Sequence record: LC799789.1
Source of the DNA: a plasmid
Reading direction: 5' to 3' (one strand)
DNA length: 64,000 nt
Made by a program: the position numbers. This document shows positions 43,801 to 49,800 of this stretch, one piece after another; position 1 is the first letter of the stretch; every line of letters begins with the position of its first letter.

Positions 43801-46800
43801 GAACCAACAGAGCCAAGCGAACCAACAGAGCCAAGCAAACCAACAGAACCAAGCAAACCAACAGAACCAAGCGAACCAACAGAACCAAGTACACCAACGG
43901 AACCAAGTACACCAACGGAACCAAGTACACCAACAGTACCAAACAAACCAGTAGACACAAACCCAATCGAAAACCCAGTTAATACAGATACAGGCGTTGT
44001 GATTGTTGCAGTTGAAGATAGTAAACCGATTATTCAATTAGCAAACGGAACAACAAAGAAAGTTGAAGCTAAAGAAATTGGTGCAAACGTTCAAAAAGAC
44101 GGAACAGTAACGGTTAAAGGTTCAGACGGAAAAATGAAAGTTTTACCAAAAACAGGAGACACAGAAAATATTGCATTGTCTGTCCTAGGGTCATTAATGG
44201 TATTAGGATCAGCATTCATTTTTAAAAAGCGAATCTAATTAAGTATTTATAAAAGCGTGGTCGCAAGTTTCACTAGCAGCCATGCTTTTATTGAATCATT
44301 CTAGGACGTTTTGAAGGGGAATGTATACCTTAAAATTAAACAAGCGCTTAGAATCGTTCTAGGCAACACCAATAACATATTGCTAGTAGGTCGGCTTTTC
44401 TTTTCACTTGTTGCGAATACAAGCGTGTGAGTTAGAAAGCAACTTGCTTGCCATCGTCTAATCATCTAACCAATGATCAACTAATGTGATTATTAGAACC
44501 ACTAAAAGTGGTGCGATAACTAACGAGATAGGTTCTGTTGCAAAGTTTTCCAAAAAATCTATTTTAGTGTAACATTGAGAAAAAAGACAGAGAGGACAAT
44601 ATACTGCAAAATAATATTAAGTAGTGGGGGGGACTTATTGAGTATGGGGATTGTAATGAGGCAGTATAATAATTTTTATATAAAATTTCAAAGACAGTTT
44701 AAGAAAGCTCATGGACAAGTTATAGAAACAATGCCATTAGAATTTTCTAATAAAGAATATATAGAACGCTTTAAATATATGTTTCCAGATAAAATATTGC
44801 TGATAGAGAGGGAAAGAAATTATTGGTATGGAAAACGTATTATTAGAAAGAATCTTTCCAAAATTCGATGTAAAGGTATGTCTTTAGAAACTGATAGTTT
44901 TATACTTTCAACTTCAAAACATATTAGGAAGATAAAAAGAGAGAGTCTAGCTAGTAACGAAGAGATGGTAAAAAAAGTAAATACTGCCCGAACAATATCT
45001 TTAGAAAAATTAAAAGCAGAGTCCTTGAGAAGCAAGAGAAAATTAAATTATATTCAGGAAGTTGAACCTCCATATTTAAGGAATTATCGAAATAGATTCT
45101 TTAAAACTCATGATTTACATGAACGATTGGAAATTATAAGAGAACTTTCTAAGTATGATTCAAAAGAAGTTCGGGAGTTTTTCTATGCAATAAATGGGCA
45201 TATTAGAAATCAATCATTAAAAATAGAAGTTCAATCATATTTTCAGAGTTTATCTTTACCTTTTAGGTTGAGCAGAAAAAAGAAAGGTAAGAAGAATTTT
45301 ATTGATAACGAAATTGTAAAAAATAAAAAAGGACCAGATGAATTGAAAAAGAGATTATATATTAATGATTTAGAAAAGATAAAAAGATTTGATATATTCG
45401 TATCGCATAATTCTAGAGACGAAGAAAAAATTATAGAGTTCTATAAAAAGTTCAATAAAAAAGGACAGGTAGTTTATATAGATTGGATAAATGATAAATA
45501 CGATTTAAGGCGTGAATGGTGCAATGCCTCCACAGTTGATATTATCAAGGAGCGTATAAAACAATCAGATGTTTTTGTATTATACTTTTCAGGAGAAACT
45601 TTGAATTCCCAATGGTGTACTTGGGAATTGGGATATGCTGACGCATTAGGGAAGAAGATATGTGTTTACTTCTCAGAAGATATAAATAGAAAAGGTATTC
45701 CAAAATTCTATGTAGCTTATCCTGAATTGCAAATGTCAAAAAATATATATGTCAAAATTAGAGGGAACGAAGATATTTTACTTAAAGAGTGGAAAAAATT
45801 ATAGGCTTATAATAAATTAGAAATGAGGGTAATATGAGACAAGAATTATTTATAAAAAAATTTTCGAAAGCTATACAAGAAGGAAATGCAGCAGTGTTTG
45901 CTGGTGCAGGAACATCGGTCGATGCAGGATTTGTTAACTGGAAAAACCTTGTAGCACCGTTTGCGAATGAAATTGATTTAGATATTGAAAAAGAAACGGA
46001 TCTTGTAGGACTGACTCAATATTATATCAATAAAAAAAGAAATAGAGGTTCGGTGAATCAAGAAATAATTGACCAATTTTCTAGTCAATATGCAGAAACA
46101 GAAGTTATGAATCTGTTAACACGACTTCCAATTTCTACATATTGGACAACTAATTATGATAAGGTAATTGAAAATGGCTTAAAAAATAATAATCGCAGAG
46201 GAGATATAAAAAGGAAGACAGATGATTTAGCAATCAGTATTCGTGATAGCGATGCGATTGTTTATAAGATGCACGGTGATGTAGATTCACCTAATGATGC
46301 AGTTATTTCAAAAGATGATTATGAAAGATATAGCGAGAAAAACTCCCTATTTGTAACAGCTTTACGAGGTGACTTAGTTTCCAAAACATTTTTGTTTGTG
46401 GGGTTTGGTTTTGAAGATCCTAATTTAGAATCCATCTTGGGAAAGATAAAAAATTTACTTGGGGAGCGTACTAGAGATCATTATTGTATTCAAAAGAAGG
46501 TATTAGAGCAAGATTATAAAAATCGAGAGGAATATAGCTATGCTAAAATCAAACAAGAATTAAAAATAGAAGATTTGAAAAGGTACGGTATAGATACAGT
46601 TCTAGTTGATGATTATTCTGAAATACCTAAGTTGATATTAAAAATAGAGGAAGAGTATTTTAAAAATACAATTTTTATTTCAGGTAGTATCTCCGATTAC
46701 AATGAAAATTGGAGTCAAGAAAAGGTAAATCAATTCTGTTATAATTTATCGCGTTCACTTGTTTCAAAAAATTATAAAATTATATCAGGGTTTGGACTTG

Positions 46801-49800
46801 GAGTAGGTAGTAGTGTTATTAATGGAGCTCTTGATGAAATTTATAACACTAAGTATAGGCATGTCAGTGAGCATCTTGGATTATTTCCTTTTCCTCAACA
46901 TGATGCTGGGGAAAAGTCTCTAGCTAAACGTTGGACTGAAAATCGTGAACAAATGATCAGTGAGGCTGGGATCTGTATTTTTATATTTGGTAATAAATTA
47001 GTTAATGGTGAGGTAGTACTTGCATCTGGAATGATGGAGGAATTTCGGATTGCTAAAGAAAGAGGAAAAGTAATAATTCCAATTGGTTCTACGGGGTTTG
47101 TTGCAAAAGAAATTTTTGATGAAATGAAAGAGTCAGGGGACTATTCATATATAAACGATTATTGGAATGATTTAGAGAACGAAGAAGATGTTATAAAAGT
47201 TTTTAATACAATAAATGAAATTATTGAAGGAGTTAGATTTAGATAATGGCAACAAAAGTATTTATTTCATTTCGTTTTAGTGATGGAAAAGAGATTAAAG
47301 ATGAACTAGTTGATTTATTTGATGAATCTACTGAGGTAATTAATAGATCAGAAGATGTTGATAGAAGTCAAATGAGTAAGGACACTATTCAGGAATATCT
47401 ATATGAGAAGTTAAAAGATACATCGGTTACAATTGTATTATTAACTCCAGAGGCCGTTTCTTATAGAAAGAATTGGATTGGAAATTACGATGATTGGATT
47501 TATGATGAACTTAGATACTCCTTGGAAGATAGAAATAACAACAGAGCAAATGGCGTAGTAGCAGTATATACAGATGATGCTAAAGATATGATACTAGAAA
47601 GTAGTTCACACTATTGTGCACATTGTCAAGAAACTAAATCATGTAGAACTTTGAAATCTTTTGACAATTTAGCACGAAAGAATATGTTGAATATAAAGCA
47701 AAGCTATAAGAAAAATCCATGTAATGATCTTTATGATGATAGTCATGACTCTTATATTTCTTTAGTAAGTTTGGAGGAGTTTAAACAGGATTATACTAAA
47801 TATATTGATAATGCAAAAGATAAAAGAGATAGGCTACATGAATTTAATATATATAAAAGAATGTGAAGAGCATTGATTTAGCATAAATTGTCTTTAGAAT
47901 AAATGAAAAGGCAACACTTTTCTGTACAAGATTTATAAAGTGCTTTTGTTTGGACTAATGTCAAATATTTAGACACAAAGATAAAAAAGAAAAACGGAAA
48001 TGGCTGTTTTTCTTTTTTATCTCATGTCCATAAAATAGTTCATTTCTGGACACTGCTATTTTGGTATGATTTTTCTCTAAAAGAATTGAAACACGTGTCC
48101 ATAAATCCATCACAAGTTCTATGTCAAATTAATCACCTTGGATAAAGTTATGGAACAATGAAGTAAAAAAAAGAAAAGTGATTACCTCTCCTTTAACTAC
48201 CGGAAGATTAACGTTTCAAGGCATTCTCAGAAAATCTGTAAGTAATTCAGCACTAAAACAATTTCTTAAAAATTGATCTTAGTAAACCAGAATCATCATC
48301 ACCTGTATTGTAATATTCCTCATGGCTCTCATATATATTATCTTTTGAAATACTATTTTTAAAACCGCACTCAGTACATTTCCATGTATATTTATAGTCA
48401 TCAAAATTATTTTGAGAATTCAGATGTGCCCCGCAACGGTCACACCACCAATCGGTATCTGGGAATCTTTCTGTCATAGTATATCTCTCCCTACATATTT
48501 AAAAATTTTTATAATTAATTTCAACATTTACCATCCAATATTATACCTCTCAACTCCTTGTTGTAATAAATACTCTTTGAAATCTTTAATAAACTCATCT
48601 TCCTTATCAGGTGCATTACCATAATGACTAAATGTTCTAGTAGACTCTTCCCAAGAAAAATTATAAACATATTCTTTCTCTGTTGAATCCCAGTCTGCAT
48701 CTCCAAAAAATGTTATTTGTCCAGCTACCAATTCTATTTCTCTAGTATATTCCCCCGTATCTTCATCTACAATTGGAATCTCTACGCTAAAATCGTATGT
48801 TTTTTCGAATTCATATGACTTGAAATTACTATCATTATCTATTCCTACCATTTTCCTCACTCCTTTATTTTTTATTAGCATATAAATTTTAATCTTCTAT
48901 AACAGGAAACTGCGCTTGCACTTCTTGGCGAATATTTTCAACGTTATTTGAAAAATCTGAAATTTTTTGAATAATTTGTTGAACAATCTCTTTTTCAATG
49001 GGATTTCTAATCTCATCTAACTCTTCAATACTAGGAATCACCACGTTTTCTTCAGATTCATAAATATTATTTAGTATCATTAATAAATCATCTCTAGAAA
49101 GGTTTTCTGGCTCCACATTATTCTCACCTATAACAAACTTTGATTTTCCTGAATTAACTATTAAGACTTTCATATATTTCTCCTTTCTTTTTATATGTTT
49201 CTATTCCTGCTTCCATTGCTTCTACAAATTTTTCATAGCTACTTTCAGTTGTATCTGATTTTGTAGAGATAAGATGAGAAGAAAATTCACCGGTAAGTAC
49301 GCGATATCCCTTTTCTTTATCTTTCGTAGTCACTATTAGATAATCTGGTTCCAGTAATGCTCCTAATGTTGAATTATGTGTAACCACAAAAACAGTGCTG
49401 CTTGCAGACAAATTCCTTATAGCATCTCTTAATTCCTTCCGAATGTATTCATTATCAAGTGACGCTTCGGGTTCATCGATTAAAATTATTGGTTTTGTTT
49501 TTGCTTCTTCTAATCTCATCATTAGAGCAAATCCCACAGCCTGTCCCCCAGATGCTGGTACACCATCTGAATCCAGCAGGTTAACTTCTAAATGCAATAG
49601 ATATTCTTCTAAAATAGAAGGATTAAAGAAACTTCTTTTTTTCAAATTCCTTAAAAATGTAATATACTGCCCACTTTTATAGGGAACAATTAAATCATCT
49701 TGAACTGCTTCACTTGTACGATCTTTTCTAAACTGAGTAGCATTTATAAACGGAGATAGCTTCACAATAATTTGGTATCCATAAATTTTTTCTTTTTTTA

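Follow-up and report, generated by a model that had tools for sequence, protein, structure and literature searches.

A type I Thoeris locus encoding a long and a short ThsB on a plasmid with Tn1546 vanA

A stretch of 64,000 nucleotides of a plasmid (sequence record LC799789.1; hereafter the window) was analysed for the composition and origin of a Thoeris anti-phage locus. The locus consists of three co-oriented, intact open reading frames (ORFs): ORF1, which encodes a long, thsB1-like ThsB protein with a C-terminal TIR domain; ORF2, which is thsA; and ORF3, which encodes a short, thsB2-like ThsB protein (Table 1). An earlier reading made from the DNA without database searches (the sequence-only reading) had proposed the same three genes as type I Thoeris, and its coordinates were borne out. 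All three products span the full length of PADLOC profiles, namely ThsB model PDLC00425 for ORF1 (E 9.6e-190), ThsA model PDLC00407 (ThsA1) for ORF2 (E 8.2e-198) and ThsB model PDLC00438 for ORF3 (E 4.4e-119). Both ORF1 and ORF3 exceed the Pfam cut-off for ThsB_TIR, and these two adjacent, co-oriented ThsB genes retain the catalytic glutamate (F252/E328 in ORF1, F6/E88 in ORF3). NCBIfam searches gave no useful type I Thoeris match, only weak, partial hits far below cut-off to Dsr2, a retron TIR protein and type III Thoeris. By domain, profile and active-site evidence, the locus is type I Thoeris. Judged by its intact ORFs and residues it looks functional, and the three-gene set is unremarkable for this known type of system, carried here on a vancomycin-resistance plasmid.

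Within the locus, the TAG stop codon of ORF1 (45802-45804) is followed by a spacer of 29 nt, which contains a GAGGG ribosome-binding site serving thsA. The stop codon of thsA overlaps the start of the short thsB gene in the sequence TAATG. Of the translational coupling proposed for the three genes, the part that concerns thsA and the short thsB gene thus stands, while that between ORF1 and thsA, which are 29 nt apart, with a ribosome-binding site of its own for thsA, does not. The Thoeris stretch is low in GC (25-33%), and its GC skew is strongly positive throughout. A promoter candidate at 44575-44605 (TTGAGA-19 nt-TATACT) has a non-canonical spacer.

ThsA combines an N-terminal SIR2 domain (Pfam SIR2_2, E 1.6e-27) with a C-terminal STALD/SLOG domain (E 1.2e-69). 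Among solved ThsA structures it matched PDB entries 8WC0 (E 2.8e-131), B. cereus 6LHX (E 2.8e-126, aligned over residues 4-464), 8BTO (E 2.8e-125) and S. equi 7UXT (SeThsA; E 1.8e-113), which confirmed the ThsA-like SIR2-SLOG protein recognised in the sequence-only reading. In the 6LHX alignment, N107 and H147 coincide with the catalytic residues N112 and H152 of BcThsA. The residues of BcThsA that contact 3'cADPR are G289, S290, L326, Q359, R371, K388, G399 and E403 (Manik et al.); all eight are kept in the window protein as G284, S285, L322, Q355, R371, K388, G399 and E403. 3'cADPR activates the ThsA proteins of E. faecium, S. equi and B. cereus, which assemble into filaments. ThsA of the window is expected to be a 3'cADPR-gated NADase like these enzymes, because it matches solved ThsA structures and because its catalytic residues and the residues of the SLOG pocket are conserved.

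The product of ORF3 begins MATKVFISFRFSDG and was matched by the Pfam family ThsB_TIR with 25.2 bits (cut-off 21.2). As this family was formerly named DUF1863, the assignment agrees with the DUF1863-type protein named earlier. F6 and E88 form its active-site pair.

In the long ThsB, Pfam matches were limited to residues ~250-341 (TIR_2, 36 bits; ThsB_TIR, 31.6 bits; both above cut-off). The active-site pair F252 and E328 was invariant across 40 aligned homologues. The TIR part was best matched by BcThsB 8BTN, both in Foldseek (E 1.8e-6) and in a PDB sequence search (E 3e-13); apart from this TIR match, PDB sequence searches with the long and the short ThsB returned noise only. A search of 5.8 billion proteins yielded at least 144 clusters that match ORF1 at 44-98% identity with near-complete coverage, nearly all of them 375-410 amino acids long; named sources include Streptococcus suis, Lachnospiraceae, Blautia and Clostridium beijerinckii. 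Residues 1-385 of the protein cover positions 1-387 of the 389-position profile PDLC00425. This end-to-end alignment shows that a ThsB family with the long architecture had already been catalogued. The long-TIR architecture is known: a homologue has been studied (see below), a detection model exists and relatives number in the hundreds. The earlier statement that such an extension is not seen in canonical ThsB was not confirmed.

The extension itself is real and in frame with the TIR domain. That it might be a separate upstream gene or an artefact of start-codon choice, an outcome named beforehand as refuting, was rejected: there is neither a stop codon nor an internal methionine near residue 250, and homologues align over the full length. 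All 40 aligned homologues cover ORF1 from its N-terminus; 39 of them begin with MG at the position of the ATG at 44644 and one begins two residues later; in two of the 40 the called protein reaches further at the N-terminus. Related cassettes keep a G-rich, Shine-Dalgarno-like run at an unchanged distance before this ATG. The window and five related contigs have seven Gs in this run, and a cassette that is ~90% identical in DNA has five. In a plasmid of Lactococcus petauri the run has eight Gs (L001, about position 3760), the upstream reading frame is shifted, and as a consequence of this frame change PGAP calls a protein of 393 amino acids from a GTG codon. The G7 run is probably the Shine-Dalgarno sequence of the long thsB gene, as its position suggests, and its length may affect the level of expression. 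A TTG codon further upstream (44575) was rejected as a start since the sequence there is absent from other cassettes. Support is strongest for a start at the ATG at 44644, because homologues begin there, the spacing to the G run is kept, and the sequence around the upstream TTG is not shared.

Residues 1-247, which precede the TIR domain, are rich in lysine and arginine (K+R 23%, isoelectric point 10.1, net charge +28), in agreement with the very basic N-terminus of about 250 residues that had been described. The sequence-only reading saw no recognisable fold in this part, and searches of Pfam, NCBIfam and PDB sequences likewise found no match covering it. Structure prediction gave a different picture. 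An AlphaFold2 model of the long ThsB, computed from a 40-sequence alignment, had a mean pLDDT of 86 and a predicted TM score (pTM) of 0.74 and consisted of an all-helical part (residues 3-202), a linker and a TIR fold (residues 249-386). The helices were reproduced in a separate model of residues 1-245, with pLDDT values of 82-95 across most of residues 1-200. The extension is therefore predicted to be a conserved, folded helical domain with HEAT-like repeats and not a disordered segment. It can be subdivided into a variable part (residues 1-137), predicted HEAT-like repeats that are conserved (residues ~140-205) and a conserved linker with the motif KKKGKKNxIDNE (residues 206-247). Identity between the clade of the window and a distant clade is 24-32% in residues 1-137, the most variable part of the family, and 55-66% in residues 138-345. 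When residues 1-245 were compared by HMMER with 1.84 billion representative sequences, only 65 clusters were found. Ten of these were examined with Pfam: all seven of at least 316 amino acids carry a C-terminal TIR domain, and the three shorter ones (256-310 amino acids) gave no match. Judged by this distribution, the N-terminal domain seems to be tied specifically to the long-ThsB TIR clade.

The genomic context of homologues was inspected next to that of the window. Close homologues (73-93% protein identity) show the same order, i.e., long TIR, SIR2-STALD and a ThsB of 206 amino acids, on contigs that carry relaxase, Toprim or integrase genes. Some distant homologues (45-49% identity) adjoin effectors of 614-660 amino acids in which a TIR domain is combined with SLOG, together with short ThsB genes. 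In C. beijerinckii the long TIR gene is part of a double locus with both a TIR-SLOG effector and a SIR2-STALD ThsA, and one distant homologue (P0019) adjoins uncharacterised genes and no SLOG effector. Of the six homologue contexts inspected, five have a SLOG-domain effector beside the long TIR gene, as does the lineage of the window. The TIR-SLOG effectors were located in L002-L004 (2918-4900), L005 (6195-8051) and L007 (6674-8518) and matched TIR_2 and STALD/LD_cluster2/3; an Nmad2 gene was seen among the neighbours of the long TIR gene in L002. A scan of genome contigs returned loci of Streptococcus, Aerococcus and Clostridia and none of Staphylococcus.

A system of the same composition has been studied experimentally. 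The type I Thoeris system of Staphylococcus aureus 08BA02176 consists of ThsA, ThsB1 and ThsB2 (Roberts et al., Nat Microbiol 2025, PMC12578639). Sau-ThsB1 (41.8 kDa with His6 tag; F242/E318) binds the phage major head protein at a ratio of 1:1 and thereby recruits Sau-ThsB2 (23.4 kDa with His6 tag; F6/E81), which makes 1''-3' gcADPR, whereupon ThsA cleaves NAD+; the catalytic residues of Sau-ThsB1 itself are dispensable (PMC12578639). The S. aureus sequences used for comparison were taken from Supplementary Data 1 of that paper. In its table of staphylococcal Thoeris sequences the column labels are exchanged with respect to the main text, so that the short protein (F6/E81) stands under ThsB1 and the long one under ThsB2. 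The sequence given for the long protein starts at an internal methionine and lacks 36 residues by the paper's numbering.

All three proteins of the window have a counterpart in this system. ThsA is 50% identical to Sau-ThsA (E 1e-139), and the short ThsB is 32% identical to Sau-ThsB2 over its full length (E 5e-21), with F6 aligned on F6 and E88 on E81. Between the long ThsB and Sau-ThsB1, BLASTP detected 29% identity over 222 residues (E 9e-29). This alignment begins inside the extension (window residues 122-341 on Sau residues 77-295) and covers the KKKGKK linker together with the predicted HEAT-like subdomain before it and the TIR domain after it. Alignment of the long-ThsB family profile with Sau-ThsB1 by hhalign gave a probability of 99.75%. 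Profile matches were reciprocal: the long S. aureus protein hit PDLC00426 first (1.4e-164) and PDLC00425 second (7.4e-48, residues 2-298), the long protein of the window hit PDLC00425 first and PDLC00426 second (1.6e-47, residues 25-347), and the short proteins cross-match PDLC00438 and PDLC00428 in the same reciprocal manner. The spacing between the active-site Phe and Glu is 76 residues in the long proteins of the window (252/328), of S. aureus (242/318) and of Streptococcus equinus (260/336). From the one-to-one homology, the reciprocal profiles and the identical Phe-Glu spacing it follows that the system of the window is, by sequence, a sister subfamily of the two-sensor Thoeris with a published mechanism.

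The three genes lie on a mobile cassette of ~3.5 kb. It is 99.1% identical to part of the L. petauri plasmid NZ_CP141702.1 (44592-48067, with a homology breakpoint at 44592), 99.5% identical to a contig of Aerococcus sp. 1KP-2016 (44528-48054), ~90% identical to a metagenomic contig resembling an integrative and conjugative element (ICE) and 78-80% identical to chromosomes of the S. mitis group. Among the 72,556 plasmids of PLSDB, the whole cassette was present in one, that of L. petauri, and in none from Enterococcus. The exact long TIR protein of 386 amino acids was found in 146 blocks of a public assembly collection, and at least four NCBI assemblies with the identical protein share the order conjugation genes, Thoeris, PDC-M49 (a neighbouring candidate defence system) and the insertion sequence (IS) IS1216. 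Directly upstream of the cassette lies a solo end of an IS6-family element with the inverted repeat GGTTCTGTTGCAAAGTTT. The exact repeat occurs three times in the window (44531, plus strand; 51368, plus strand; 52159, minus strand), with a chance expectation of 0, and in the plasmid of L. petauri the same ~70 bp are found next to a gene for an IS6 transposase. This solo end and the complete IS1216-like element at 51368-52176, which has the same orientation and is annotated as IS6 family in matching plasmids, bracket the Thoeris and PDC-M49 genes, which suggests that this segment was acquired via IS1216. The complete element belongs to the surroundings of the locus and has no part in the Thoeris mechanism. 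Judged by these matches, the cassette is IS1216-associated cargo moving between plasmids and ICEs of Lactobacillales. The bracketing layout resembles a translocatable unit of the IS26/IS1216 type.

With regard to the plasmid as a whole, positions 1-25000 of the window, which contain Tn1546 with vanS, vanA and other van genes, are 100% identical to NZ_CP152090.1 (45,954 bp), a plasmid of an E. faecium blood isolate. Positions ~51.4-64 kb are 100% identical to NZ_CP114619.1, and a conjugation module of the MobQ/TrsE/VirD4 type (26.8-44.4 kb) is 95-97% identical to many enterococcal plasmids. Matches to NZ_CP152090.1 and NZ_CP114619.1, both of about 46 kb, stop short of the region ~25-51 kb, and neither plasmid was among the top matches to 25-50 kb. 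By these comparisons the window is a mosaic. The linkage between Thoeris and Tn1546 vanA within the window is real, and the proposal of type I Thoeris on a vanA plasmid of conjugative type was upheld.

Table 1. Coordinates of the Thoeris genes, their domains and associated mobile elements in the window.
Feature	Position	Strand	Remarks
IS6-family (IS1216-like) solo end remnant, ~70 bp	44531-44598	+	inverted repeat GGTTCTGTTGCAAAGTTT at 44531-44548; directly upstream of cassette
Mobile Thoeris cassette, ~3.5 kb	44592-48067	+	at least 99% shared with other hosts
G7 run, putative Shine-Dalgarno sequence of long thsB	44626-44632	+	11 nt before ATG; function from position only
Long thsB (thsB1-like), ORF1	44644-45804	+	386 amino acids from ATG; intact ORF
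N-terminal non-TIR domain of long ThsB	44644-45384	+	residues 1-247; predicted all-helical, basic
TIR domain of long ThsB	45385-45801	+	residues 248-386; F252 and E328 invariant
thsA, ORF2	45834-47246	+	470 amino acids; intact ORF
thsA domains			SIR2, roughly residues 1-260; SLOG/STALD, residues 263-465
Short thsB (thsB2-like), ORF3	47246-47866	+	206 amino acids; intact ORF
Complete IS1216-like element (IS6 family)	51368-52176	-	inverted repeats at 51368 and 52159; 228-amino-acid ORF at 51422-52108

Several further genes surround the locus. The candidate defence system PDC-M49 (PADLOC) adjoins Thoeris at 49154-51194 (minus strand) together with 48889-49173. In the window, PDC-M49A is split into ORFs of 260 and 438 amino acids that overlap by 59 nt and match positions 1-256 and 250-680 of the 681-position model; it is intact (680 amino acids) in the related contigs L037 and L039 and split alike in L038. 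PDC-M49B (94 amino acids) is intact. A type II restriction-modification pair at 54212-58269 consists of a double methyltransferase of 700 amino acids, annotated as Dam family in matching plasmids, and an AlwI-family endonuclease of 651 amino acids (PADLOC REase_II, 1024 bits). Thoeris, PDC-M49 and the AlwI-type restriction-modification genes together form a small defence island on the plasmid. Upstream of the locus, positions 43405-44238 encode an LPXTG-type surface protein of 277 amino acids with LPKTGD near its C-terminus and long tandem repeats of PVD and PTEPSE; this gene causes a local GC peak of 0.50 and spurious ORFs in other frames and on the opposite strand. Between this gene and the IS remnant, positions 44328-44530 match segments annotated as type I toxin-antitoxin Fst family toxin (par-like). 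In the window and in related plasmids, the end of the conjugation module carries a conserved protein (122 amino acids, 42977-43345 in the window), which matches the PADLOC mad1 helix-turn-helix model weakly (1.2e-11). Within that module, an ORF of 411 amino acids (40470-41705, minus strand) lies between TrbL-like and TcpC-like genes and represents an inserted IS110-family transposase; the insertion is found at the same place in L038, is absent from L036, L037 and L039, and assigns the window and L038 to a single plasmid lineage.

Taken together, the locus very probably represents a two-sensor type I Thoeris abortive-infection system as in Staphylococcus aureus and Streptococcus equinus. We infer from this kinship the trigger, the domain that binds it, the identity of the cyclase and activity in the host. 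The following sequence of events is proposed: (i) the target of the helical N-terminal domain of the long ThsB would be a structural protein that the phage produces late in infection, for which the major capsid (head) protein is, by analogy, the likeliest candidate; (ii) the complex of long ThsB and trigger would recruit or activate the short ThsB via contact between the TIR domains; (iii) one of the two TIR domains would cyclise NAD+ to 1''-3' gcADPR (3'cADPR); (iv) this signal would bind the SLOG pocket of ThsA; (v) ThsA would assemble into its active form, and its SIR2 domain would hydrolyse cellular NAD+, so that growth stops and phage production is blocked.

Six points speak against parts of this interpretation. 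The long ThsB is only 29% identical to Sau-ThsB1, with the first ~120 residues aligned at the profile level only, and therefore the trigger could differ from that in S. aureus. The capsid-binding role would, by analogy, be assigned to the N-terminal domain of ThsB1, whereas PMC12578639 maps no capsid-binding part within that protein, and no domain-level mapping of the role of its N-terminal region was found in the literature searched. The cyclase differs between the studied systems: it is ThsB2 in S. aureus and the long ThsB1 (F260/E336) in S. equinus CNU77-23 (PMC12578639). As both TIR domains of the window keep the Phe/Glu pair, either could be the cyclase here. The proposed mechanism does not account for the strongly basic charge of the N-terminal domain. 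Gene order is B1-A-B2 in the window as against thsA/B1/B2 as the S. aureus operon is written. Finally, a scan for promoters and terminators produced candidates no better than those in shuffled sequence.

According to the sequence-only reading, the extension may be a new sensor module or may add nucleic-acid binding; on such a view it would detect phage DNA or RNA instead of a capsid protein and make the locus an unusual variant of Thoeris. The composition of residues 1-247 would fit such a role, as would the lack of a Pfam, NCBIfam or PDB sequence match for the N-terminal region; moreover, residues 1-137 are the most variable of the family and are left unaligned to Sau-ThsB1 by BLASTP and by single-sequence hhalign. 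Nevertheless, the extension shares homology with the N-terminal part of Sau-ThsB1, nearly over its full length at the profile level and in pairwise alignment from residue 122, and its predicted HEAT-like helical repeats are not a known nucleic-acid-binding fold. Sau-ThsB1 and purified capsid protein form a 1:1 complex, and this complex is enough for in vitro signalling without further components of the cell. As the long TIR family is already listed in PADLOC as ThsB, is populous and has as its closest studied relatives Sau-ThsB1 and Seq-ThsB1, the long components of a two-sensor Thoeris that senses phage major capsid protein, the extension is not an atypical feature, and a function in nucleic-acid sensing is improbable. 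A bolder proposal, unlikely on balance and yet to be taken more seriously than nucleic-acid binding, is that the long ThsB family is a modular receptor. The HEAT-like adaptor, the linker (together ~138-247) and the TIR domain would be its constant part and residues 1-137 would set trigger specificity; the enterococcal/lactococcal clade might then sense a trigger other than the HK97-type major head protein to which the S. aureus relative responds. The sensor module appears, moreover, to be portable between SIR2-SLOG and TIR-SLOG effectors.

Two further explanations concern the locus rather than the domain. The long TIR protein might be a self-contained abortive-infection NADase like SpbK, which also joins an N-terminal domain to TIR; it would then only happen to neighbour a minimal Thoeris of ThsA and ThsB and would send no signal to ThsA. 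Such stand-alone TIR defence proteins with sensor domains are known (SpbK; PMC12847820), the short ThsB and ThsA alone would be a complete canonical Thoeris, F252 and E328 are invariant, and ORF1 is separated by 29 nt from thsA, which has its own ribosome-binding site. This explanation is very improbable in view of the synteny with a SLOG effector described above, the effector being SIR2-STALD in close relatives and TIR-SLOG or SIR2-STALD in distant ones: that the long TIR travels with a SLOG effector argues against a stand-alone role. In addition, Sau-ThsB1 acts through ThsB2 and ThsA, with its own catalytic residues dispensable. Least probable of all is that the locus is decaying, non-functional cargo. 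The adjacent PDC-M49A is broken here and intact in related contigs, the region is rich in IS elements, and no clear promoter emerged from the scan; however, all three Thoeris ORFs are of full length relative to the profiles, catalytic and ligand-binding residues are all intact, and several hosts and assemblies share the cassette at 99-100% conservation.

Mechanistically the locus stands on established ground: type I Thoeris with a long ThsB1 and a short ThsB2 has already been dissected experimentally, and the subfamily has PADLOC models of its own, by which it would be detected without manual inspection. What it adds is of epidemiological value, as a complete abortive-infection system is present on an apparently conjugative enterococcal plasmid with Tn1546 vanA. 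Phage resistance could thereby travel along when vancomycin resistance spreads, a point of relevance to phage therapy against vancomycin-resistant enterococci. The lineage is already circulating, as seen from the 146 blocks with the exact long TIR protein; the plasmid context was alike in the four places viewed. Of some minor interest are the physical link between phage defence and vanA and the role of the ThsB1 N-terminal domain.

Compared with known systems, the locus is closest in composition to those of S. aureus and S. equinus, with which it shares a SIR2-STALD ThsA, a long TIR protein with an N-terminal non-TIR region of ~240 amino acids, and a short TIR protein of ~200 amino acids with F6 and a glutamate at about position 81-88. 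It differs from the S. aureus system in belonging to sister PADLOC families (PDLC00425/00438 as opposed to PDLC00426/00428) and from both in that its subfamily is hosted on plasmids and ICEs of Lactobacillales. The B. cereus MSX-D12 system (BcThsA 6LHX/8BTO, BcThsB 6LHY/8BTN) has the same ThsA catalytic residues and 3'cADPR pocket, and its BcThsB (8BTN) is the closest structural match to the TIR domain of the long protein; however, it contains a single short ThsB without an N-terminal helical domain, whereas the window encodes two ThsB proteins, one of them long. EfThsA and SeThsA (7UXT) belong to the same SIR2-SLOG effector family, for which activation by 3'cADPR is established, but only these effectors and not their cognate ThsB sensors were studied. 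The Clostridia loci L002, L005 and L007 likewise combine a member of the long TIR family (45-49% identity, full length) with a SLOG effector and at least one short ThsB. In contrast to the window, the enzymatic domain of their effector (614-660 amino acids) is TIR instead of SIR2, and the loci are chromosomal or located on integrative elements of Lachnospiraceae and Clostridium.

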